This document shows, piece by piece, positions 1,184 to 42,645 of a DNA stretch of 64,000 bases. This stretch comes from Escherichia phage REP4. The DNA is taken from the sequence record OQ174503.1; one strand, 5' to 3'. The position numbers and the translations under genes are program-made. The notes beneath the pieces were generated by a model. The model did no database searches, was not told the origin of the DNA, and saw only the letters and a list, made by a program, of their open reading frames with translations. Within the stretch, counting starts at the first letter, position 1. Each line of letters opens with the position of its first letter.

Positions 1184-2043
1184 TTACACCGCCATCTTTC
1201 CTTTCAAGACACCATGGGACTGATAATCTTTGAGAACGAAATCTCGTGCTGTCATATATTCAGTTAACCAATACATTTGAGTTTCAGTATCGCATTGACT
1301 GAATCCATTAGGCCAATTAATACTAAGTTTGCATAGATCCATAGGAGTTCTATTTAATATCTCTTTGCATTGCTCAATATGGTTAGAATAAATGTGTGTA
1401 TTACCACCCGAGAATACCAAATCGCCCGGAACTAGTTCACACATGTCAGCAACAATATGTAAAAGAGCAGCATAACTCGCGATGTTAAATGGAAGACCGA
1501 GGAAAACATCTACCGAACGTTGATACCATTGTAGGTCAAGGTATCCGTTACGCACATTAAACTGATAGAACATATGACAAGGTGGTAATGCCATCTGCTT
1601 GAGTTCAGCTGGATTCCATGCCGACACAATTTGACGTCTATCATTGGGAAATGTTTTAATACGATTAACAACTTCTACAATTTGATCTACACCACCAAAA
1701 TCACGCCACTGTTTTCCGTAAATTGGACCAAGTTCACCGCTATGATAACCTAAGTCTTTGGCCTGGTTTTCGTAGTTTTCATCCCAAATTGTTTTTCCTG
1801 CAATTAAAGATCCATGAGTACGTTGACGTAAATCATTTACGTTAGTACTTCCTGATAAGAACCACAATAACTCAGAAATACATGCATTCCAGGCGAGCTT
1901 CTTAGTCGTTACTGCAGGAAAACCTTTAGTTAAATCCCAGCGTAATTTAGTACCGAACAAAGCAATTGTTCCTGTGCCTGTTCGGTCATCGGTTTCATAG
2001 CCATTTTCCAGAATATCTTTAATTAAAAATTGGTATTGTTTCA

Positions 2044-4474: not shown

Positions 4475-4501
4475 ATAAAAAAGGGGACCTCTAGGGTCCC
4501 C
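4475..4501 (-). terminator. Gene 32 terminator GGGGACC-CTAG-AGGTCCCC plus U-run
   Basis: 7-bp perfect stem followed by a T-run on the minus strand, 22 nt after gene 32 stop. Confidence 0.8.
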
Positions 4502-4523
4502 AATTAATTAATAATATAATCTA

Positions 4524-5432
4524 TTAAAGATCATTCAAAAGGTCATCCAGGTCCGTGTCATCAGCACTAGATGAACTGCCAGAGCTTGAGCTCATAAAAT
4601 CATCTTCAGTTTTTGTTTTGAAGTCATCAACATTGAATGCATCCAAATCATCAGCAACTTTATCAGCTTTCTTAGCGGCAGTTGCTGCGGCACCACCCAT
4701 AGCAGCAGTTCCCATAACTTGACTGAACTTAGTGCTCAGTTCTTCAAACGATTTGAATTTATCTTTAGAAGTCATTTCAGAAAGGTCAACCATTTGTTCG
4801 AACAGTTCTTTCTGGAAAGATTCATCATCAATGTTTGGAATCGCAGATTGATTCAGGAATTTAGATTCGTCGTAGTTACTAAAACCAGAAACTTGTTTAA
4901 CTTTCAGTACAAAGTTAGCACCTTCCCACGGACAAGTTACATCAACCGGAGTTTCACCCATTTCAACATCAACTGCAATCATTGCATTGATTTTATCCCA
5001 GATTTTCTTACCGAAACGGTATTTAAATACTTTACCTTCATTTTCTGGAGCAGCTGGGTCTTTTACTACAAGAATGTTAGCCCAGTAAGAAGTTTTACGT
5101 TTAACAAGACCGTACTCTTTATTGTCAGTGTTATACAAATCATTTTTACTGATGTACTGACATACTGGACAAGAATCGTAATCACCGTGGGTAGATGAAC
5201 AGTTTTCAATATACCATTTACCATTTTTCTTGAAACCGTGATTTACAAGAATTGCGAATGGTGCTTGTTCATCATTTTTAGACGGAAGAAAACGAATTAC
5301 TGCTTGACCGTTACCCGCATTGTCGAGTTTCAGTTTCCACTCGCCTTTATCTTCAGAAGAAAAACCACCTTTATTTCCAGCCAGTTTAGCCATTTGTGCA
5401 GCGAGTTCAGCAGTAGATTTACGTTTAAACAT
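4524..5432 (-). CDS. 32: Single-stranded DNA-binding protein gp32
   Basis: ORF track; near-identical to T4 gp32 ([17 protein letters not shown]..., zinc site, acidic C-terminus [12 protein letters not shown]). Confidence 0.97.
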
Positions 5433-21830: not shown

Positions 21831-23155
21831 TTGATTTCCTCTAAATCTTTAGTGTATTCTGTAACTACATCAGTAGTTTTCCAATATTCGTTTTCTTCTT
21901 TCTTAGCTTTAGCTTCTTCAGCAAGTTTCTTTGCTTCGTCGGAAGTCATATGAAAAATATTCATTCCGACTAGTTTATCAACATAAGAAGAATACATCTC
22001 AATTTTAGAAAGTTCTTCGGTCAGTTCTTTGCGAGTTTTACCCTGTACAACGATTTCACCTGAAATTACTTTCTTAATGAAATGTGCCTTGGCAAAGGCT
22101 AAACGAAATGCTGATTCAGTTTCTTTGATTTTGTTATCAATTCGTTTTTGGACATAAGTTTTACGAACTTCAACGAAGTCTTTAATTAAATCAACTACGT
22201 TATCGTAAACTTGTAACTTTCCTTTCTCGTTGATGACTGTAATATTTTGGGAACGACGCTCAATCAACCCGAAGTCTTTCATGATTTTTGCATGGCGTTC
22301 TTCTTCGTTATCGCTCAAAGAATATTCTTTGCGAAATTTAACTTTAAAGCCAAAACCATGCTCACCACAAGCATCATCCCATGTAATGAAGCCCTTATCT
22401 TCAAGCGGGTCTAAGATTTTACTCACATAAGTTTCACGATCATACTTATACGGAATCTCAGTGATATTCATTTGAGTTCGTGAAGTAAACTTGTACGTTC
22501 CACGAATTTCATATTGACCGTCAATTTCAACGACTTCACCACGAAATTCTGGGAATTCTACCTTCGGTTTAGTTACTTTCTTTCCTTGAAGAACTTGTAA
22601 TACAGCTTTCTTAACAGAAGAAACGCTATGAGGAAGAATGTAAGTTGCATAACCAGTTGCAATACCGGAAACACCATTAAGAAGAACAGTAGGAATAATA
22701 GGCAAATAGAAAGCAGGAGGAATGTGTTCTTTATCTTGATGTACCGGAGCATATTCAGTATCTTTATACACGCTATAGAAATTTTTACTTACACGAGCAA
22801 AAATATAACGACTTGCCGCTGCTTTTTGAACAGTACGAGAACCAAAGTTTCCTTGACCATCTAACAAAGGAAAGTTATTATTCCATGTGTTAGCCATCAA
22901 AGCCCCCGCATCTTGTGCAGAGTTTTCGCCATGATGATACCCAAGGTCAGCTACACCACCTGCAATAGAAGCAAGTTTGTGAAACTTATCTTTATTTCCC
23001 CGTGCCAAATCAAGAGCTCGAGCGATAACAAATCGTTGAACTGGCTTAAATCCATCAATCATATTTGGAATAGCACGATTTTCAACCGTGTACATAGCAT
23101 AAGCCAATGCTTCATTATCAATGATACTTTTTAAATCGCGATTATTCAGTTGCAT
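21827..23155 (-). CDS. 52: DNA topoisomerase II medium subunit gp52 (GyrA-like cleavage core), 442 aa
   Basis: ORF track; size identical to T4 gp52; N-terminus MQLNNRDLKSIIDNEALAYAMYTVENRAIPNMIDGFKPVQR. Confidence 0.95.
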   Translation of the reverse strand: MQLNNRDLKSIIDNEALAYAMYTVENRAIPNMIDGFKPVQRFVIARALDLARGNKDKFHKLASIAGGVADLGYHHGENSAQDAGALMANTWNNNFPLLDGQGNFGSRTVQKAAASRYIFARVSKNFYSVYKDTEYAPVHQDKEHIPPAFYLPIIPTVLLNGVSGIATGYATYILPHSVSSVKKAVLQVLQGKKVTKPKVEFPEFRGEVVEIDGQYEIRGTYKFTSRTQMNITEIPYKYDRETYVSKILDPLEDKGFITWDDACGEHGFGFKVKFRKEYSLSDNEEERHAKIMKDFGLIERRSQNITVINEKGKLQVYDNVVDLIKDFVEVRKTYVQKRIDNKIKETESAFRLAFAKAHFIKKVISGEIVVQGKTRKELTEELSKIEMYSSYVDKLVGMNIFHMTSDEAKKLAEEAKAKKEENEYWKTTDVVTEYTKDLEEIK

Positions 23156-23158
23156 AAA

Positions 23159-23299
23159 TTTACCATACTAGTGAATGTAGTGCCATAATAACATCAGAAA
23201 TGAAAAGCACGACTTGAATTAATCCGAACATTACTCCATAATATAGTGCTACCAATAAAGCAGCAAGGGCTAACGAGTAGCCCAAGATTTTCTTAATCA
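23159..23299 (-). CDS. Hypothetical 46-aa membrane peptide (MIKKILGYSLALAALLVALYYGVMFG...)
   Basis: Manual translation; one predicted TM helix; ATG embedded in stop region of the next small ORF. Confidence 0.45.
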
Positions 23300-23444
23300 T
23301 TTTTATCCAATAATTTAAATAGTGATAAAACTGCTACCATGCCTTGGGCTAAAGATTGTGAAAACACCGAAGTTTCTCCGGTTACTAATGTTCCGACAAA
23401 TACAAATGACCAGCAGAAAAAAGCTATACTATAAACAAATTTCA
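23292..23444 (-). CDS. Hypothetical 50-aa membrane peptide (MKFVYSIAFFCWSFVFVGTLVTG...LLDKND)
   Basis: Manual translation; RBS GAGGAAATT; TM helix. Confidence 0.45.
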
Positions 23445-23473
23445 TAATTTCCTCATTATTAAATATAGGATTT

Positions 23474-23635
23474 CTTAATCATTTTTAATCATCTTAAGTA
23501 AACCGACAAAAGTAGAAAGAACCCAGCCAATAAACAGAAAACTTAAGAATATCGGACCAGGGGTCCATACGCCTAAAAAGAAGCAAACCGAACAGACTAT
23601 AGCCATAATAAGTTCAATAAAAATTAGGATAATCA
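23474..23635 (-). CDS. Hypothetical 53-aa membrane peptide (MIILIFIELIMAIVCSVCFFLGVWTPG...MIKND)
   Basis: Manual translation; RBS GAGGAAAAT; two hydrophobic segments. Confidence 0.45.
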
Positions 23636-23646
23636 TATTTTCCTCA

Positions 23647-23724
23647 TTAGCGTCCGAAGACGCCTTTAGTTTTAAGATTGTTACGATAGAACTGCATTAC
23701 ATGTTCGTTATGGAAATTACTCAT
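23647..23724 (-). CDS. stp: Stp peptide (suppressor of three-prime phosphatase; restriction alleviation and PrrC activator), 25 aa
   Basis: Manual translation [25 protein letters not shown] matches T4 Stp; ATG overlaps ndd stop (TAATG). Confidence 0.75.
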
Positions 23725-24179
23725 TAGTATGCCTGCAAAACAAATTTAAAGTTATCAGCCAACATACGGTTCATTTCTTCAAGTGTTTGATACTCAGAAT
23801 GATGATTACGAGTAAACGCTAAAGCTAACTGACCTTTTCCAAATCCCGTCGTCAGAGGTTTCATCTTAGAAGCAGGTAGATAAAATACTGTGTATGGAAC
23901 ATTGTTATTTGCAATAGTACGCGCAAGCTGAGACCGACGCTGACGAATATGACTTAGAACTGCACTGAACCCTTGCTTAGAACGCTGATTACCTACATAA
24001 AATCGTGCAGATACACACGGACTATCAAATGGACCACCAAATTTGCTCACTAAAAAGTAAAATCCAGGGTTAGACAAAATGTCTTTATGCGGAGTTCCAA
24101 AAACCCATTCACCGCCCTTGATTGTACCAATAACAGTTGCGCCTGCATTATTCAGATCAGTAACAGTCATATATTTCAT
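23724..24179 (-). CDS. ndd: Nucleoid disruption protein Ndd, 151 aa
   Basis: ORF track 23724..24227 shortened to ATG at [25 protein letters not shown], matching T4 Ndd. Confidence 0.92.
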
Positions 24180-24239
24180 TTTAATTTCCTCTAAATTATT
24201 TTCTACTCCAAGGCCGCATGAATACATACGGCCGATAAA

Positions 24240-24455
24240 TTAATCGTCGCAATCGACGCTTAATTCCCAGAACTCTTCTACGGTATAAGTTTCAGTATCA
24301 TTTTCAATACAGAAACGTTCATTACTGTTATTTGCTAAAGTAGCGTTAACTGTCATTTTCTCGCTAGTGCTCTTAAGAGGTGAAATACGAATTAACTGAT
24401 CACCATTATCTAAACAGAAAATTTCACCAACTTTTACATCTTTAAAAATTTTCAT
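24240..24455 (-). CDS. Hypothetical 71-aa protein (ndd.x region)
   Basis: ORF track; ATG with RBS GAGGTGA. Confidence 0.6.
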   Translation of the reverse strand: MKIFKDVKVGEIFCLDNGDQLIRISPLKSTSEKMTVNATLANNSNERFCIENDTETYTVEEFWELSVDCDD

Positions 24456-24463
24456 AATTCACC

Positions 24464-24571
24464 TCAGGGAGTATAAAATCCAAATGCAGTTGTTGACCAT
24501 CCCATCCAATATGGGATATTTGCGCCAATGTAAAATACAAGAATATAAAACCAAATGCTTAGTAAATTCAT
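24464..24571 (-). CDS. Hypothetical 35-aa hydrophobic peptide (not in ORF track)
   Basis: Manual translation MNLLSIWFYILVFYIGANIPYWMGWSTTAFGFYTP; start overlaps upstream stop. Confidence 0.35.
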   Translation of the reverse strand: MNLLSIWFYILVFYIGANIPYWMGWSTTAFGFYTP

Positions 24572-24768
24572 TATTTTACACCATTCCAAATTGTTTCAAC
24601 CACAGATTTCAAACCATTTTGGTGAATATCCATTCCGACAACTGCCATCAAATAAATTCCAACTACAACTGAACCCAAGGCGAAAATCAGCATGAAAATG
24701 AATAAAGCTGGAAAAATATTATCGAAAAACCATTCCATAAATGTAAAAGCACTGCGTTTACGCTTCAT
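24571..24768 (-). CDS. Hypothetical 65-aa membrane protein
   Basis: ORF track 24571..24789 shortened to first ATG (MKRKRSAFTFMEW) with RBS GAGGAAAAT; one TM helix. Confidence 0.55.
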   Translation of the reverse strand: MKRKRSAFTFMEWFFDNIFPALFIFMLIFALGSVVVGIYLMAVVGMDIHQNGLKSVVETIWNGVK

Positions 24769-24775
24769 ATTTTCC

Positions 24776-24889
24776 TCACATAAATCCAAAGTAAGCGTTT
24801 AATACATCAATCATTAAAACGATTGGGAATATACTCAAAACTACTAGTATTATAACTACATTCCATATAGCTTTAACAATCTTTTTCAT
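24776..24889 (-). CDS. Hypothetical 37-aa membrane peptide (MKKIVKAIWNVVIILVVLSIFPIV...)
   Basis: ORF track 24776..25024 shortened; upstream part is translation of the early promoter repeat. Confidence 0.45.
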   Translation of the reverse strand: MKKIVKAIWNVVIILVVLSIFPIVLMIDVLNAYFGFM

Positions 24890-24917
24890 TTTCTGTTCCT
24901 CCGTAGTTGATAGAGTA

Positions 24918-24947
24918 ATAATACCACAGAGGAACAGTCTTGTAAAC
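24918..24947 (-). promoter_or_regulatory. Early promoter (GTTTAC, 18 nt, TATTAT)
   Basis: Minus-strand GTTTAC at 24942-24947. Confidence 0.6.
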
Positions 24948-25132
24948 AACTTTTTTAAAAATATTCGTAATAAATGTGAATACCAACTACTACTGCTGAA
25001 ACTTGCGCAACCCACCATGCACAAGCAATAAGTACAGAATTCAAAATTTTCATAATAACCTCATCACAAAAGTAAATGTTAAACAAATTAATGGAATACT
25101 AATTAACCAAACAAAACACCACCATAATGAAC

Positions 25133-25396
25133 TCATAGTTCAATCTCAGCGATTTTCATTTCATTACTATTAATAGCCGCTTTAAGACTATCTGAAAGAA
25201 TTACATTCCAGTGGTCATTCATATGACCATTAACTAAGCGTGTAATTTCTTCGGGAGTTGAAAAATAAGGCGTATCAGACTCCCAATGCGATAGTCCCAA
25301 GCGAGTATAAATCATACCTTCATCATCGCTAGAATATTCAACTGACACAAACTCATCAGTTATTTTATGTTTAGCGTAATAAAATTTAAATTTCAT
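25133..25396 (-). CDS. Hypothetical 87-aa protein
   Basis: ORF track start is TTG; ATG three codons downstream (MKFKFYYAKHK). Confidence 0.55.
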   Translation of the reverse strand: MKFKFYYAKHKITDEFVSVEYSSDDEGMIYTRLGLSHWESDTPYFSTPEEITRLVNGHMNDHWNVILSDSLKAAINSNEMKIAEIEL

Positions 25397-25401
25397 TTTA
25401 C

Positions 25402-25608
25402 TCAATAATCCGCTAAAAGATCGACGATTGCATCACGAAGACACTTATTCGCAATACGTTTAAGAGCAATTTCAGTTTCTGGAGCATTTTGAATAATCAT
25501 CGAATTCAATTCAACCTCAGCAAACTGAAGTTCTTTAACTAATTCAGCTTTATATTTTCCTTGCCCTTTCTTAGCTTTTGCTCGTTTTAATTCAGCCGTA
25601 GTAAACAT
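25402..25608 (-). CDS. Hypothetical 68-aa protein (MFTTAELKRAKAKKGQGKYKAEL...)
   Basis: ORF track 25402..25707 shortened to ATG with RBS; N-terminal extension is promoter read-through. Confidence 0.55.
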   Translation of the reverse strand: MFTTAELKRAKAKKGQGKYKAELVKELQFAEVELNSMIIQNAPETEIALKRIANKCLRDAIVDLLADY

Positions 25609-25642
25609 TTTATTCTCCAAATCCGTATCAGTTGATAGTTGT

Positions 25643-25672
25643 ATAGTACCACAGTCCTTGTGGTATGTAAAC
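25643..25672 (-). promoter_or_regulatory. Early promoter (GTTTAC, 18 nt, TACTAT)
   Basis: Minus-strand GTTTAC at 25667-25672; conserved flank CCGTATCAGTTGATAGTTGTATAGTACC. Confidence 0.7.
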
Positions 25673-25688
25673 CGTTTTGTGAAAATTT

Positions 25689-26246
25689 TTAAATGGAAAG
25701 ATACCATCCGCTGTAGTTGCTTTTTCTTACAACCTTACGAAGGTCTTCTCTATCACCGATGAACTTCGGAGTGTACTGGATGACACCTGGGTGAATTTCT
25801 TTAGTGTTGAATATAATTATACAGTCAGCGACCTGATGATTCAGAATGGGCCCTAGATTTATTCCAGAACCGTATGGATACTCTCCGCTGCATCCTGTTG
25901 TTACAGAAATCCAACGTGAGTCAGTTTGATGTGTCTTAACTTCTACACGAAGCCCGCAGTATCTTGGATGCGCCAATACATCCCATGCGTATGTATACGG
26001 GTCATTAACATCCTCTTGGCCTTTGTTAACATACCCGCTTAACCAATCTGCTACAAAAAACTCTGCATACACAGCGATACGGCATCTTTCGATGACTTCT
26101 GCTTTATCCTGATTAGGATTTTGCTTTAAAGAGTATCTTGCTGTATCAGCAATTTTGACCTTCATTTCACTAGTCAAGTCATTGTTCGACATGGTAAATG
26201 CCGGAATCTGAAATAGTCTCTGTAAACCCGGATTCGTTTTCTGCAT
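25689..26246 (-). CDS. denB: Endonuclease IV DenB, 185 aa
   Basis: ORF track; size and position as T4 DenB, between ndd cluster and rIIB. Confidence 0.85.
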   Translation of the reverse strand: MQKTNPGLQRLFQIPAFTMSNNDLTSEMKVKIADTARYSLKQNPNQDKAEVIERCRIAVYAEFFVADWLSGYVNKGQEDVNDPYTYAWDVLAHPRYCGLRVEVKTHQTDSRWISVTTGCSGEYPYGSGINLGPILNHQVADCIIIFNTKEIHPGVIQYTPKFIGDREDLRKVVRKSNYSGWYLSI

Positions 26247-26306
26247 TAAACTTTCCTTTTACGTCGGAATCACTGATATTCATACAATAAATCATAACTT
26301 CCCTTA

Positions 26307-26329
26307 AAACAAAAGGGCCGAAGCCCCTT
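26307..26329 (-). terminator. Hairpin AAGGGGC-TTCG-GCCCTT plus U-run
   Basis: GC stem with tetraloop then TTTTGTTTT on the minus strand, immediately after the 64-aa ORF. Confidence 0.7.
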
Positions 26330-26332
26330 ATT

Positions 26333-26527
26333 TTATTTGAATTGTGCAATTCTTTTTTCTAAACAATCTGCGTAAGATTTCATTGAGATGAACTGTGAAA
26401 GCAGTAATTCTTGCTCAACTGCATTAACCGTTGAAAACTTTTCACTTTCTAAAAATTTGCTCAGCGCATTAATTTTGAGCATTAATTGATCGTATTCTTC
26501 TTTTACTCGTGCTTGATAACCTAACAT
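26333..26527 (-). CDS. Hypothetical 64-aa helical protein (denB.1 position)
   Basis: ORF track; ATG with RBS AAGGA; flanked by two GC hairpins. Confidence 0.6.
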   Translation of the reverse strand: MLGYQARVKEEYDQLMLKINALSKFLESEKFSTVNAVEQELLLSQFISMKSYADCLEKRIAQFK

Positions 26528-26540
26528 AATTTTCCTTAGT

Positions 26541-26558
26541 TAAGGGCCGAAGCCCTTA
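26541..26558 (-). other. RNA hairpin AAGGGC-TTCG-GCCCTT overlapping rIIB stop
   Basis: Perfect stem directly upstream of the SD of the next gene; no U-run, so likely a processing or stability element rather than a terminator. Confidence 0.45.
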
Positions 26559-27494
26559 TTTGAATTGTTCAGTAACGTCTTCAACTACTTCGTATTGGCA
26601 AGTACGCATTTTAGCATCGTTGTAATCAATCGGAATTGATACTACATCGCGAGGATGCACTTTAACTTTTACAACTCGACTGGTTGAACTACCAAAGTGA
26701 CGAATATAAGATTTAGAACACACATGCAGACCACGAGAACAAGTTTGTGTATCATCGTCATTCACACGAGTACGTGGCATTTTAACTACTTTACCAGGAC
26801 TGTTATCAAAAGTATTTGAATGGCAGTCAAAGTAATTACTGCGAACTACTTTCCAAGCATAGAAGTAACCGTCTTCTGTAATTTCAATATCGTTTGCTAC
26901 CAAGAAATCAAAGAGTCGAGATACCGCTTTTTGGCTTGGGTTTTCCAGCAGATTTTCCAAGAACGGAAAATAAAATTCAAAGTTTTCGCCTTTTTCCATC
27001 GAATCGAGAATACGATCAACTAAACCAGACCGCAATTCAATGTTTTGATAGAACAAGCTTCCACCTTCAATTCGAACATCACCGGAAATATATTTTTCAA
27101 CAGCGCGACGAACGTTAATTTTTTGTGCTGCTTCTTCCAATTTATCTGCAACAAGCAGGTTAAGAATTTCCTGGAAGTTTGAATGAGTATTAGGAGTTGC
27201 GTTATAAGTTACGCCGTCAACAGTAATTGAAATGAATTTTTTAGATGCATTCCAAATAATGTCAGATTTAGCAACTGGAGCAATAGCTACATCACTCTTA
27301 ACTTCAACTGTAATGTCACCGCTAATAGTAACTTTGGAGCGTTCAGCTTCTTCAGCATTTTTCAAAACACGACGGATGGTGTCAACCGATACATCTTTCC
27401 AATAAGCCAATTCCTGTTGGGTATAATTACCGCTTGAATACAGTTTAACAATTTCAGCTTGTTCGTTTTTGGTCAGGCATTTAATATTGTACAT
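26556..27494 (-). CDS. rIIB: rIIB protein (lysis inhibition / Rex exclusion), 312 aa
   Basis: ORF track; size identical to T4 rIIB; immediately downstream of rIIA. Confidence 0.93.
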   Translation of the reverse strand: MYNIKCLTKNEQAEIVKLYSSGNYTQQELAYWKDVSVDTIRRVLKNAEEAERSKVTISGDITVEVKSDVAIAPVAKSDIIWNASKKFISITVDGVTYNATPNTHSNFQEILNLLVADKLEEAAQKINVRRAVEKYISGDVRIEGGSLFYQNIELRSGLVDRILDSMEKGENFEFYFPFLENLLENPSQKAVSRLFDFLVANDIEITEDGYFYAWKVVRSNYFDCHSNTFDNSPGKVVKMPRTRVNDDDTQTCSRGLHVCSKSYIRHFGSSTSRVVKVKVHPRDVVSIPIDYNDAKMRTCQYEVVEDVTEQFK

Positions 27495-27505
27495 AATTTT
27501 CCTTA

Positions 27506-29683
27506 TTAGGCCGCAAGGGCCTTCATAGTTTTAGCGATTTGGGAAACTTCATCATCACTTAAAGAGTTGCGATAACCGATGAAGTCGGAAACAATACGGA
27601 ATTTCTTGGTAAACTCAGCAACCATTTTATCACTGTTTTTTGAAGCATTATTTGATAATACATCAAAAAGATTAGTTACTGTCCAGATGTCATGACCAAT
27701 GGTATCTTTTCCACCATTAAAATATACACCCTGTAATGAACTAACCATATTAGCGAGTCGTGTATATTCTTCAGAAACTTCATCTACACTGAAGTACTTC
27801 ATCATAAAATCTAACTCAGGATACTTGATAATTTTATCAATATATCGTTTAGCTGAACTTGAATAACCTACATACTTATCATAATCTACATCATCAAAAG
27901 CATCTACATATAAATCACGCAGAGTTTCAAAAATACATTGGCACTGACCAAGTTCTTTTACCTTTTTCTGCAAAAGCGGACGAATAACATAAAATTCATT
28001 AATGCCAATAAGATTAGCCATACGAGTCAAAATACTCGTAGATGGATGACAAAGCGATGTAGTACCATCCATAGAGAAAATATCAGAACGATGCATGTAT
28101 GCTACATAACCAGTAATTTCATCTGCTTCTGACGTAAGTGTAAATAGTTCCTCTTTTTCCCAGCGTCCGTCTTTAATTTCAAACTTAAATGCAGTAGCAG
28201 CTTTAGGACGAGGAGCTTTACTTTTAACTGCCTTCGGAATATAACTTTTAACTAAAGCTTCAATTTCTGACAAATAATGAATGTTAACTTCATCACTTTC
28301 AAACATTGCCATAATATCAGGAAGCAAATCAATCTGCGATTCTACTTCCGGATTAATAAACAAAAGGCGTTCATTGTGATGAATATTCAAAGTGTTATTA
28401 AATTCGCTATCATCTAATGCACGTGCTAATCCACGGACAATATTAACACGATTTTTAATATTATCAATAATGATATTAATTTTTGTTGTGTTAATACCAA
28501 ACAGACGATAACTTGATGCAACGGCTGAAGTTTCATGGCTTTGCTTAATGCGTTTCAGTCGAGGGTCAAGATTTACTTCATACACAACTCCTGCATTGCA
28601 TAACTTACTGTCAGGTTCAAACATGCTTTGCATCTTCTTATATGACAGATTTTTAGTCGTGAATTTGACCGAATTACTAATCATATAATCTCGAGCAGAA
28701 TATCCCATCTTCATTAATTCACGGTATGTATGACGAGGAGATGTAGATTCTTTAAATCGTTTTACATCTTCATTGAATGCCTTTTCACTAAGCTCTTTAA
28801 CACGCTCAATAATATTTTTACGAGTACGATCATCTAATGAAAGAGCTTCGCGTGATGGAGCAATATCAAGTGAACCCATTGGAAACTTAATGTAATTCAC
28901 TTCATTGCGGATGCTTAACCAGTTACGATCTCTAATAACACCTTCGATAGGATAAACAATGCCGCCATAGATAGCATACAATCCACCGCGATCTGGCCAG
29001 TATCTTTCTGGATTTACGCCGTAATAATCATCAAAATCCGGAAAATAATCAATTTCGCGGTCAAGACCGTTAATGATAGCTAAATCTTTGAATGGTCGCA
29101 TGATATAAGAAACTTCATAAGCAAAGTTTCTAAAATCTTTTTCTTCAACTGGAACTACGATTTCAATACCAGTTTTATCATTTGGACCCATTTCTTTTAC
29201 GAATGTAGGTTTAATTTGCGGACCGTCACCATCCATGTAAGCTACATAACCGCGAATTTCGCCTTTATGATATGAAGTAATACTGAATGTATCAGTATAA
29301 CTAAACGGGGATTTAGAACCTAAACCAAATCCGCCAATGAAATCGTTAGATTCAGCCTTAGATGAACTAAAGTATGAATTATACAACCCAGGAGAATTAT
29401 CATCACCCTGAATATCAAAATCGCTCATACCCGGACCAAAATCTCGACAAACAAATCGCGGATCTAATCGTCCTGGAACTTGAATGATAAATTTTTCAGG
29501 ATTTCCATTGAGAGCATGGGCATCAATCATGTTGGTAATCAATTCACGGACTACTGCACGAATCTTGTTTGTATACAAATCAGATGATAGAATTTTAAAT
29601 ACTTTAGGATTTGCTGCGATGCTAAATGCTTTTGATTTAGAACCATTACCAAGAATTGTTTCTTTTTCAGTGGTGATAATCAT
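27506..29683 (-). CDS. rIIA: rIIA protein, 725 aa
   Basis: ORF track; size identical to T4 rIIA; N-terminus [60 protein letters not shown]. Confidence 0.95.
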
Positions 29684-29922: not shown

Positions 29923-29952
29923 ATTATACCACATCCTTGTGGTAAAGTAAAC
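29923..29952 (-). promoter_or_regulatory. Early promoter (GTTTAC, 18 nt, TATAAT)
   Basis: Minus-strand GTTTAC at 29947-29952 and TATAAT at 29923-29928. Confidence 0.65.
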
Positions 29953-34790: not shown

Positions 34791-35291
34791 TTATCTCATT
34801 TCAATAAAATCTATGAGTTCAGCATGTGATTTGCGGAACATTACTTGGTGCACGCCAATGATAACTTCATCTTCAGGAACTTCGTATACAGCGAGATAAA
34901 ATCCTTTAGAAGATAATTCTTCCCGCTCTTCTCGTGTGAACCATCTCATCATATCATATTCACTAGCGAAAGCAAAATGATAAAGAGCTATAAACCATCC
35001 GGGAATATGATATTCTACTCCAACATAATCTTTCTTGAACTTAGTATTAATTACTATATTAGCGTTTTTAACTAATAGTTTATCTTCATGTGGTAAAGGA
35101 ATTCTTTTATTATTATCGCTATGATGCATAAAATTAGGTCTGTCATAACCTACGTGTAATAGCCACTCTTCGCTCCATGAATCGATTATACTCCTGTACG
35201 GCGTTATTTGAACACAAAGATTTCGACGTATTGTTATAGCATCTTCACAATCAAGAATACTAAACGATGATTCAACACGATAAATTTTCAT
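34791..35291 (-). CDS. Hypothetical 166-aa protein
   Basis: ORF track start is TTG inside promoter; ATG at MKIYRVESSF with RBS GAGGATAAT. Confidence 0.6.
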   Translation of the reverse strand: MKIYRVESSFSILDCEDAITIRRNLCVQITPYRSIIDSWSEEWLLHVGYDRPNFMHHSDNNKRIPLPHEDKLLVKNANIVINTKFKKDYVGVEYHIPGWFIALYHFAFASEYDMMRWFTREEREELSSKGFYLAVYEVPEDEVIIGVHQVMFRKSHAELIDFIEMR

Positions 35292-35318
35292 TTTATTATC
35301 CTCAGTAGCTATAGTGTT

Positions 35319-35348
35319 ATAATACCACAACTAACCGAGGAAGTAAAC
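35319..35348 (-). promoter_or_regulatory. Early promoter (GTTTAC, 18 nt, TATTAT)
   Basis: Minus-strand GTTTAC at 35343-35348. Confidence 0.6.
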
Positions 35349-42614: not shown

Positions 42615-42645
42615 ATTATACCATTCTCATTTTGGAAAGTAAACC
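42615..42645 (-). promoter_or_regulatory. Early promoter (GTTTAC, 19 nt, TATAAT)
   Basis: Minus-strand GTTTAC at 42640-42645 and TATAAT at 42615-42620. Confidence 0.55.

Follow-up and report, generated by a model that had tools for sequence, protein, structure and literature searches.

The short interval between ndd and denB in Escherichia phage REP4 (OQ174503.1), at positions 24240–25608 of a 64,000-nucleotide stretch of its DNA (the window), raises the question of whether its chain of tiny, partly hydrophobic open reading frames (ORFs) consists of real genes, and if so, how they are expressed and what their products do. The window is Tequatrovirus, with 97–98% DNA identity to SA20RB and UFV-AREG1, and eight packed ORFs of 28–87 aa lie on its minus strand between two minus-strand boundary genes. 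The downstream boundary is ndd (23724..24179), which encodes the nucleoid disruption protein of 151 aa (95% aa identity to T4 Ndd and 100% to that of SA20RB; annotated in relatives), and the upstream boundary is denB (25689..26246), which encodes endonuclease IV of 185 aa (96–98% aa to Tequatrovirus DenB). Six of the ORFs are orthologous to T4 ndd.1, ndd.2, ndd.2a/ndd.3, ndd.4, ndd.5, and ndd.6, and two to ORF268 and ORF269 of Yersinia phage PST; all eight have full-length matches in PHROG families, the products are 89–100% identical in aa to T4 Ndd.x (tblastn, full length), and the order and strand of ndd.1–ndd.6 between ndd and denB are the same as in T4. Comparative sequence evidence shows that these eight minus-strand ORFs, arranged as two blocks, are genuine, conserved small genes. 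Together with the expression, membrane, and shuffling steps proposed below, it is very probably best explained as the ndd–denB segment of the T-even (Tequatrovirus) hyperplastic early region.

Block 1 is headed by the early promoter P2 (25672–25643), followed by orf68, orf87, ndd.6, and ndd.5, while block 2 is headed by P1 (24947–24918), followed by ndd.4, the 65-aa DUF7248 gene, ndd.2, and ndd.1, and then runs on toward ndd. The initial annotation had described the ORFs as linked by TAATG/ATGA overlaps, and these are present: ATGA at the orf87/ndd.6 and ndd.6/ndd.5 junctions and TAATG at the ndd.2a3/ndd.2 junction, so that the genes appear translationally linked. At the remaining junctions, the genes are 5–8 nt apart, and twice the stop TGA falls within the next Shine–Dalgarno sequence. 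Two minus-strand stem-loops (24258–24245 and 24233–24212, together 24212..24258) lie at the end of ndd.1 and beyond it, with no following U-run. The fold of 24180–24262(-) has −23.6 kcal/mol (z −2.97) and a terminator-like match, and the equivalent site in SA20RB carries a terminator annotation. An Rfam scan of 22500–27600 at E up to 1 returned no RNA family.

The genes of block 2, all on the minus strand, are described here from the ndd side. The ndd.1 orthologue (24240..24455) encodes a hydrophilic protein of 71 aa with 97% aa identity to T4 Ndd.1 (phrog_2183, E 2.7e-38; pN/pS 0.09). The ndd.2 orthologue (24464..24571) encodes 35 aa, 89% identical to T4 Ndd.2 (phrog_4135, E 1e-22; pN/pS 0.16), and its product is hydrophobic, rich in aromatics, and has zero charged residues, with a Kyte–Doolittle 19-residue mean (KD19) of 1.64. 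The next gene (24571..24768; ndd.2a/3) encodes a protein of 65 aa, a putative membrane protein by its hydropathy, that belongs to DUF7248 (PF23906; phrog_2401; pN/pS 0.11). It matches the Pfam profile at E 1.4e-20 and 73.4 bits (gathering cut-off 27) over profile positions 3–57 of 58 and has a basic N-terminus (KRKR), one hydrophobic span, and a conserved C-terminal motif, GLKSVxxTIWNG. This gene equals T4 "ndd.3" and "ndd.2a" read as a single gene: the T4 reference, in which the two are annotated, lacks one nucleotide in codon 2, whereas T4 strain 147 is free of the deletion and the window has one intact frame; T4 "ndd.3" is probably a frameshift artefact. A word-indexed search gave seven close clusters for the 65-aa protein, and an exhaustive HMMER search gave five representatives, including two implausible large proteins; the family is narrow, and homology searches gave no functional clue. 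The ndd.4 orthologue (24776..24889) encodes 37 aa with a single hydrophobic span (phrog_3098), 92% identical in aa to T4 Ndd.4, 61% to that of a Dhakavirus, and 55% to that of L017. Its true start is the ATG at 24889, with GGAGGA just before it, while T4 Ndd.4 is annotated with 42 aa, as a C-to-T change there makes an upstream ATG.

Block 1, also on the minus strand, begins on its ndd side with ndd.5 (24955..25053), which encodes a hydrophobic product of 32 aa identical (100% aa) to T4 Ndd.5 NP_049885 (phrog_5011, E 3.6e-26; pN/pS 0.09), followed by ndd.6 (25050..25136), which encodes a hydrophobic product of 28 aa with 96% aa identity to T4 Ndd.6 NP_049886 (phrog_8851; pN/pS 0.10). Both had been put forward as further candidates found by hand translation; the ORFs exist as given, but they are not additional, being already annotated in T4 GenBank AF158101 as Ndd.5 (AAD42561.1) and Ndd.6 (AAD42560.1) and represented in PHROG 5011 and 8851. 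A tblastn search with Ndd.6 matched 661 phage records, which span several Tevenvirinae genera; in Mosigvirus, Dhakavirus, L015/L016, and L017, homologues of 28–29 aa are found at the equivalent location. The hydrophilic orf87 (25133..25396; PST ORF268; phrog_2390, E 3.8e-46) is found in T6 and PST and missing from T2 and T4, and it has a homologue with 68% aa identity in Mosigvirus; its AlphaFold2 model, made without an alignment, has a pLDDT of 46.9. Similarly, the hydrophilic orf68 (25402..25608; PST ORF269; phrog_4535; pN/pS 0.03) is found in T2 and PST and missing from T6 and T4, with a homologue of 61% aa identity in L015/L016. Its true start is the ATG at 25608, with GGAG just before it. 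The longer ORFs at 24776..25024 and 25402..25707 had been regarded as inflated by promoter read-through, and this is confirmed: they cross P1 and P2, and their upstream extensions vary in frame or length among relatives, neither the ndd.4 extension nor that of orf68 to 25707 being frame-conserved.

The early promoters were defined by the pattern GTTTAC-N14-GTGGTAYTAT. P1, GTTTAC-N14-GTGGTATTAT (24918..24947, minus strand), matches the consensus exactly upstream of ndd.4, scores 10/12 with TG in a sigma-70 scan, and has an equivalent in SA20RB annotated as a T4 early promoter. P2, GTTTAC-N14-GTGGTACTAT (25643..25672, minus strand), is likewise an exact match, placed directly after denB and ahead of orf68, and its equivalents in SA20RB and Lutter carry a promoter annotation. 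The two have a 25-nt repeat in common and A/T-rich tracts upstream, and their transcription starts were placed from the consensus. Two copies of the early promoter repeat had been reported inside the interval; both copies are real, but only P1 lies within 24240–25608, the second being 35–64 nt past its end. In the whole window, 11 matches with at most two mismatches were found, 11/11 on the minus strand, against 0.06 expected. Promoter-like matches within coding sequence at 24747–24718 and 24599–24570 were set aside, as they do not fit the T4 early consensus.

P1 and P2 also fit the PST/T4 consensus of promoter-early stem-loop (PeSL) elements, TTTACW-N17-TAYWAT, and in both cases a Shine–Dalgarno sequence and then a start codon come next. 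Comeau, Arbiol, and Krisch described PeSL elements at the ndd–denB locus in 2014 and proposed shuffling there (PMC4122927). As in PeSL elements, P1 and P2 adjoin insertions and deletions between relatives, and P2 lies at the edge of the orf68/orf87 indels and of the orf87 allele swap. In PeSL elements, the stem-loop lies upstream of the promoter, whereas folding gave no convincing stem-loop just upstream of either −35; P1 does have a strong hairpin, but one that overlaps its spacer and the Shine–Dalgarno sequence downstream.

The comparison with T4 showed the same arrangement of one early promoter after ndd.5 and another after denB, together with the same ndd.6/ndd.5 ATGA overlap. The window differs in having orf87 and orf68 in addition, between ndd.6 and the denB-proximal promoter, where T4 has only an 8-codon remnant, MKIAEIEL. 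The gene content of PST is identical to that of the window, including the homologues of orf87 and orf68. The difference has been described as an "exchange of ndd.4/.5 in T4 for ORF268/269 in PST" (PMC4122927, Fig. 6A legend); in contrast to this legend, both PST and the window keep intact ndd.5 and ndd.6 ORFs (unannotated in PST), and the T4 difference is therefore an insertion/deletion of two ORFs. Across the window, PST, T6, T2, and T4, all four combinations of orf68 and orf87 presence and absence occur, and the insertion–deletion junctions are short repeats at start codons. In addition, HY03 and Lutter carry a divergent orf87 allele (51–54% aa) inside flanks that are 96–100% identical, a replacement with sharp borders. 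Individual records also show apparent lesions, namely, the frameshift of the T4 reference, a stop codon interrupting the frame in T2 RefSeq, and, in L013, a 3' frameshift of ndd.6. The genes, promoters, and shuffling at this locus are thus already in databases and the literature, so that the novelty implied for the candidates and for the promoter repeats did not survive, and as a discovery, the interval matters little. The annotation of T-even phages, which number hundreds of genomes, is nevertheless inconsistent, with ndd.5 and ndd.6 often absent and ndd.4 and orf68 often over-extended, and a corrected ndd–denB map is useful for mining small phage proteins.

One alternative holds that the tiny ORFs, above all those of 28 and 32 aa, are untranslated chance frames in an AT-rich leader or spacer whose sequence is kept for UP elements or RNA structure. 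Short hydrophobic peptides are difficult to detect by shotgun proteomics. In T4, the orthologous genes are all transcribed early, ndd.2–ndd.6 being assigned to the early RNA class; mass spectrometry found Ndd and Ndd.1 as early proteins, while the five hydrophobic Ndd.x products are listed as "NA", not detected (PMC9697503, Table S2), as would be expected of chance frames. Favoring the same explanation, ndd.5 or ndd.6 is unannotated in many genome records, and the window has mini-ORFs with KD19 of at least 2.1 on both strands (19 minus and 10 plus). Against it, in 500 shuffles of the interval, ATG-ORFs with KD19 of at least 2.1 averaged 0.11 with a maximum of two, and none of the 500 equaled the four of the real interval; the density of hydrophobic ORFs is therefore not due to chance. 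(The automated count gave three; the fourth, ndd.4 at 3.05, was passed over because a longer ORF begins at the first ATG in its frame.) Within the genus, pN/pS is 0.03–0.16 in the called frames versus approximately 0.6 or more in other frames (for the tiny frames, 0.09–0.10 in the called frame only), and polymorphism in the called frames is skewed to codon position 3, which in ndd.5 holds eight of the nine polymorphic sites. By these measures, the small-gene frames are under purifying selection, with pN/pS of approximately 0.1 within the genus. The within-genus data are uninformative for ndd.4, whose four polymorphic sites are all non-synonymous; its cross-genus pN/pS is 0.30–0.35, in the ndd.4 frame only. 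For ndd.6, one cross-genus pair (the Dhakavirus) has pN/pS above 1. ORF length, start, and position are maintained at 60–68% nucleotide identity; for instance, ndd.6 keeps its 28–29 codons, its position, and its SIP-x-IC core motif in genera whose DNA is 62–68% identical. The conservation of the frames, which the initial annotation had named as a check, was thus found, with Ndd.6, Ndd.4, Ndd.1, and orf87 also carried by genera outside Tequatrovirus, and chance frames are scarcely credible.

In another explanation, the locus is mainly a recombination and regulatory scaffold of PeSL cassettes, and the small ORFs are transient passengers under little selection for a function of their own. The occurrence of orf68 and orf87 in every combination, the swapped orf87 alleles, the PeSL-mediated shuffling already proposed, and the apparent laboratory-strain lesions (T4 reference, T2 RefSeq, and L013 ndd.6) speak for it, but ndd.1, ndd.2, DUF7248, ndd.4, ndd.5, and ndd.6 are present in 14/14 Tequatrovirus sequences compared and are under purifying selection, and several of these core genes persist across genera, which makes a mere scaffold unlikely. 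Type I toxins such as Hok, TisB, and the Ibs-like peptides have a comparable size (28–37 aa) and a single hydrophobic span. It may accordingly be supposed that the Ndd.x peptides of that size are membrane toxins of this kind, whose early depolarization would aid host shut-off, and in a single BLASTP comparison, Ndd.6 and a Hok sequence were 39% identical (E 0.003 for this one pair), though the 28 aligned columns include nine gap positions. No toxin family was matched in Pfam (E up to 0.1) or NCBIfam, early depolarization should harm a phage that needs an energized cell, and the yield defect of the T4 deletion sa-delta-9 is only mild; toxins are decidedly improbable. Membership of Ndd.6 in Hok/Gef was rejected separately, with no Pfam Hok_Gef match at E up to 0.1 and only four residues after the span in place of a periplasmic C-terminal region.

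The preferred reading, that of conserved small early genes, leaves the role of the hydrophobic products to be considered. The initial annotation had described real small genes, several of them hydrophobic, and this holds: five of the eight products exceed the classical membrane-span cut-off of 1.6 in KD19 (1.64, 2.71, 3.05, 2.17, and 2.31), and they are predicted from hydropathy to span the membrane once. Pfam and NCBIfam profiles run on the interval ORFs gave DUF7248 only, the rest being sub-threshold noise with no function, and the literature search found no functional study of ndd.2–ndd.6 or DUF7248 and no experimental membrane-localization data for Ndd.x products. The T4 deletion sa-delta-9, which removes 52.1 through denB, including ndd.1–ndd.6, still yields approximately 50% and abolishes the T4-induced stimulation of phospholipid synthesis (PMC6071114); the five predicted membrane peptides thus fall in a dispensable region. 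The Ndd.x products (28–65 aa) share one hydrophobic span with Ac, 52.1, the small membrane proteins of E. coli, and type I toxins, and their genes cluster with those of other very small early products, Stp, Ac, and 52.1 being encoded just downstream. No sequence relationship to the characterized small membrane peptides is detectable with Pfam and NCBIfam, and Stp, unlike the proposed Ndd.x, is soluble and targets a restriction enzyme complex (annotation note). Emp of Mosigvirus AV110 (10.64898/2026.09.14.751387) was discarded as a counterpart; it is a 109-aa protein beside motA, at another locus, with ndd and denB unmentioned.

In the proposed course of expression, host sigma-70 RNA polymerase would fire P1 and P2 immediately after infection, and ribosomes would move from cistron to cistron by translational coupling, which would matter most for ndd.6 because its Shine–Dalgarno sequence is weak. 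The products of 35, 65, 37, 32, and 28 aa would enter the inner membrane as single-span peptides and may act on targets in the envelope or membrane as accessory factors that are dispensable and host-specific, akin to Stp and Ac. The promoter modules and the short repeats at start codons could act as recombination points, through which cassettes (orf68, orf87, and its alleles) would be gained, lost, or swapped between phages.

A further level of control is suggested by a 15-bp hairpin upstream of ndd.4 (24893..24937, minus strand), whose 5' arm consists of the P1 spacer and the start of the extended −10, and whose 3' arm contains the ndd.4 Shine–Dalgarno sequence GGAGGA. It folds at −23.2 kcal/mol (z −4.3 to −6.0), while RNA from the presumed P1 start has no structure. 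Across 13 distinct Tequatrovirus sequences, 99% of the cells are paired and changes are one-sided (wobble) only, a level of pairing conservation that does not exceed the shuffle control within the genus. Translational occlusion hairpins with an internal promoter are known from T4 genes e, soc, 49, and I-TevI (PMC3014915). Similarly, on the long RNA started upstream, a stable helix is predicted to sequester the ndd.4 Shine–Dalgarno sequence, and the promoter within the hairpin would give a shorter RNA devoid of the 5' arm, so that ndd.4 would be silenced on P2 read-through RNA and open on P1 RNA. The T4 genes have a late internal promoter and a temporal effect, whereas the upstream and internal promoters of ndd.4 are both early; any hairpin effect is therefore predicted to insulate cassettes rather than set timing. 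Translation of a cassette's first gene may thus depend on RNA from its own promoter, with the gene silent on upstream read-through RNA. The joint reading, in which early-promoter modules have a built-in translational insulator and, separately, Ndd.6 is the best conserved membrane-effector candidate, is possible and offered tentatively; Ndd.6 is singled out because, of the tiny peptides, it alone is retained in the denB–ndd interval of all lineages examined. The predicted pairing of promoter spacer and Shine–Dalgarno sequence would be a small addition to known T4 translational control, and if the insulator were general, it would explain the functional independence of shufflable early-gene cassettes. 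A hairpin occluding the Shine–Dalgarno sequence was dismissed at P2, where the spacer forms a hairpin of just 7 bp (z −1.85). The Dhakavirus ndd.4 has the same hairpin architecture with a different sequence, and the early promoter at 35319–35348 in the window has the same design of spacer/Shine–Dalgarno pairing.

The interval between ndd (23724-24179) and denB (25689-26246), two minus-strand genes whose products are 95–100% identical in amino acid sequence to T-even proteins, carries the run of small ORFs described in the initial annotation. It comprises eight ORFs on the minus strand: ndd.1 (24240-24455, 71 aa), ndd.2 (24464-24571, 35 aa), a 65-aa ORF (24571-24768) that represents T4 ndd.3 and ndd.2a as one gene, ndd.4 (24776-24889, 37 aa), ndd.5 (24955-25053, 32 aa), ndd.6 (25050-25136, 28 aa), orf87 (25133-25396, 87 aa), and orf68 (25402-25608, 68 aa). 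The described linkage of these ORFs is also present, with ATGA at orf87/ndd.6 and ndd.6/ndd.5 and TAATG at the 65-aa ORF/ndd.2; the other intergenic gaps are 5–8 nt long, with the stop TGA located within the next Shine-Dalgarno sequence in two cases. Translation of these tightly packed cistrons may be coupled. The 2.6 kb around the locus matches 547 phage records, nearly all of Tequatrovirus (T4-like), the closest being SA20RB and UFV-AREG1 with 97–98% identity; none of the matches is an identical record.

The run is real but already known. Between ndd and denB, the T4 record (NC_000866) lists ndd.1, ndd.2, ndd.2a, ndd.3, ndd.4, ndd.5 (99 nt), and ndd.6 (87 nt). In Yersinia phage PST, orf87 and orf68 are known as ORF268 and ORF269, respectively. 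All eight ORFs have full-length PHROG family matches, and the 65-aa ORF scores well over the cut-off of Pfam DUF7248. The two peptides of 32 and 28 aa that had been translated by hand and proposed as further candidates were translated correctly, and they are T4 Ndd.5 (100% identical) and Ndd.6 (96%), both annotated before. In the deposited genomes of UFV-AREG1, SA20RB, T6, and PST, ndd.5, ndd.6, or both are unannotated, which is probably why the gene track supplied with the window lacked them. Common gene callers usually apply a minimum of 90 nt, below which ndd.6 falls at 87 nt. In PST (L018), intact homologues of ndd.5 (100% aa identity) and ndd.6 (96%) are located at 2670-2913, unannotated in its record.

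The initial annotation would have given up the frames if they were not conserved in related phages; they are conserved, and pN/pS is low within the genus. Among fourteen Tequatrovirus sequences, pN/pS in the called frame is 0.09 for ndd.1, 0.16 for ndd.2, 0.11 for the 65-aa ORF, 0.09 for ndd.5, 0.10 for ndd.6, and 0.03 for orf68, against about 0.6 or higher in the two uncalled frames. Polymorphic sites are enriched at codon position 3, with 1/0/8 sites at positions 1/2/3 in ndd.5 and 3/5/20 in ndd.1. Within the genus, ndd.4 has only four polymorphic sites, all non-synonymous and too few to inform pN/pS; in comparisons with a Dhakavirus and with L017, a phage further removed, the ratio is 0.30–0.35 in the called frame and >1 in the others. 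Ndd.6 is present in 661 phage records (tblastn). Mosigvirus, Dhakavirus, the L015/L016 lineage, and L017 each have a homologue of 28–29 codons in this position, with the common core W-x(2,3)-W-x(2,3)-IP-x-I. The cross-genus pN/pS of ndd.6 is 0.5–0.7 in three comparisons and >1 in one, a weak signal as expected at 84 nt. In Mosigvirus APCEc01 (L007), a different hydrophobic ORF of 36 aa (MKIALLIVLRTICDTGFYIACSFTGTWLALTYFNVI; 1899-2009, minus strand) starts directly downstream of the ndd.6 stop and fills the slot after ndd.6; it may be related to ndd.5 very distantly or correspond to it in position only. In the IMG/VR UViG 2974742932 (L013), ndd.6 is frameshifted near its 3' end and thereby joined to an 83-codon frame across ndd.5 and the promoter (2369-2620), either as a pseudogene or through a sequencing error.

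The T4 reference departs from the other T-even sequences in the 65-aa gene. Compared with window 24571-24768 (minus strand), it (L001, 3933-4130) is one base short in codon 2 (ATGAAGCGT to ATGAA-CGT). The deletion gives rise to the annotated ndd.3, which is read out of frame, and to an ndd.2a truncated at its N-terminus. Codon 2 is intact in T4 strain 147 (L020) and all other T-even sequences compared, so that T4 ndd.3 probably reflects either an artefact or a lesion specific to that strain. The DUF7248 match belongs to the full-length form. In the T2 RefSeq record, this gene is interrupted by an in-frame stop at codon 33.

The locus is mosaic, and all four presence/absence combinations of orf68 and orf87 occur: both are present in the window, PST, SA20RB, and UFV-AREG1, only orf87 in T6, only orf68 in T2, and neither in T4. 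The indel junctions lie at short repeats around start codons, e.g., GAG(A)ATAAAATG. The T4 and T2 deletions joined two copies of AAATGAAA, one at the start of orf87 and the other at codon 80 of this gene, and therefore left an 8-codon remnant, MKI(A/V)EIEL, in T4 (L001, about 4497-4525) and T2 (L005, about 1609-1637), corresponding to window 25133-25160. In this remnant, the orf87 start codon is fused to its last codons, and the overlap of the stop with the ndd.6 ATG is preserved. In T6, orf68 was lost via a repeat present in both leaders. HY03 (L008) and Lutter (L006) carry an orf87 allele only 51–54% protein-identical to that of the window (compared over 25150-25650), with DNA identity of 50–60% within the gene, recovering to 96–100% in the promoter leader and over the final ~15 nt of orf87. 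With 68% aa identity, the allele of Mosigvirus is nearer to that of the window, though HY03 and Lutter belong to the same genus as the window. The HY03/Lutter orf87 leader is similar to the ndd.4 promoter leader (CTATCAGCTACGGAGGAGTAAAA). The ndd-denB locus was used as an example for the promoter-early stem-loop (PeSL) model of cassette shuffling (PMC4122927), and the orf68/orf87 pattern fits this model. The figure legend of that study describes an "exchange of ndd.4/.5 for ORF268/269" in PST (PMC4122927); however, PST and the window keep ndd.5 and ndd.6 intact, and the difference from T4 is therefore a two-ORF insertion/deletion rather than an exchange.

When both strands of the window were searched with the T4 early-promoter consensus GTTTAC-N14-GTGGTAYTAT, 11 sites matched with two mismatches allowed, where 0.06 would be expected; all of them are on the minus strand. 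Two at the locus are exact: P1 (24918-24947), between ndd.5 and ndd.4, and P2 (25643-25672), between denB and orf68. They have in common a 25-nt repeat (D5) reaching beyond the -10 element, and T4 early promoters are annotated at the equivalent sites in the SA20RB and Lutter records. Both copies had been placed inside the ORF run; P1 is inside, whereas P2 lies 35–64 nt past the end assigned to it. The suggestion that the longer ORFs are inflated by promoter read-through holds, as the extensions of ndd.4 to a TTG at 25024 and of orf68 to an ATG at 25707 cross promoters. In relatives, indels in A/T runs alter the frame and length of this upstream sequence: the open extension of ndd.4 is 22, 32, 50, or 57 codons with differing residues, and that of orf68 falls in two different frames. 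The proposed starts have GGAGGA (ndd.4) and GGAG (orf68) seven or eight nt upstream. GGAG-type Shine-Dalgarno sequences stand before the leading cistron of both promoters (24893-24900 for ndd.4 and 25612-25616 for orf68, minus strand), while internal cistrons have GAGG or weaker sites. GGAG is the motif cut by the T4 RegB nuclease in early mRNAs. RegB cleaves Shine-Dalgarno sequences of T4 early mRNAs (PMC3014915).

A 15-bp hairpin is predicted in RNA from 24937 to 24893 (-23.2 kcal/mol, z -4.3 to -6.0), with the P1 spacer and the start of the extended -10 as its 5' arm and the ndd.4 Shine-Dalgarno sequence in its 3' arm. A transcript begun at the expected P1 start site would not include the 5' arm and is predicted to be unstructured. 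Across 13 distinct Tequatrovirus sequences, the hairpin cells are 99% paired; the five variable pairs all changed on one side only, via G-U wobble, and the shuffle control is therefore not exceeded. In Dhakavirus CLBP2 (L009), the spacer of the promoter before the ndd.4 homologue, about 60 nt upstream of the gene start at 2703 (minus strand), reads CATCTCCATTAG instead, and it too is complementary to the Shine-Dalgarno region that follows, CTAATGGAGATG (predicted hairpin -19.8 kcal/mol, z -5.95). The modeled architecture is retained despite the change in sequence. The same design is predicted at 35285-35348 (minus strand; -21.4 kcal/mol, z -4.8), where an exact early-promoter match (35319-35348) has a spacer complementary to the Shine-Dalgarno sequence of the following ORF (ATG about 35291). 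Weaker spacer/Shine-Dalgarno hairpins are predicted at 42615-42644 and 29923-29952. The predicted ndd.4 hairpin would resemble the occlusion hairpins of T4 genes e, soc, 49, and I-TevI (PMC3014915), except that its internal promoter is an early one, and such a structure could insulate ndd.4 translation.

Several of the small products are hydrophobic, as had been noted. The Kyte-Doolittle maximum over 19 residues (KD19) is 1.64 for ndd.2, 2.71 for the 65-aa ORF, 3.05 for ndd.4, 2.17 for ndd.5, and 2.31 for ndd.6, while ndd.1 (0.48), orf87 (0.44), and orf68 (0.71) are hydrophilic. The interval holds four ATG-ORFs with KD19 of at least 2.1 (three by script plus ndd.4, which the script passed over, its first in-frame ATG opening a longer ORF); 500 shuffles of the interval averaged 0.11, with a maximum of 2. 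The five peptides would be expected to insert in the inner membrane and may have an accessory, envelope-directed role. Family profile and pairwise comparisons did not support membership of the locus peptides in type I toxin families. A literature search for functional studies of ndd.2-ndd.6 found none; the remaining value of the finding lies in the function of the peptides and in the side observations.

Early transcription and dispensability of these genes are taken by analogy from T4. In its time-resolved transcriptome and proteome, ndd and ndd.1 are early as RNA and protein, whereas ndd.2, ndd.2a, ndd.3, ndd.4, ndd.5, and ndd.6 are early as RNA with protein given as "NA", i.e., not detected (PMC9697503, Table S2). 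The T4 deletion sa-delta-9 takes out 52.1, ac, stp, ndd, ndd.1-ndd.6, and denB; the mutant still yields about half as much phage as wild type, but infection with it no longer stimulates phospholipid synthesis, a phenotype that the authors link to no gene. According to them, several genes of the region are predicted membrane proteins, and strains without endonuclease IV, dCTPase, and Alc lose the stimulation of phosphatidylglycerol synthesis (PMC6071114). The window encodes a Stp homologue of 25 aa at 23647-23724 (minus strand), equal to the 26-aa T4 Stp minus its final Gln.
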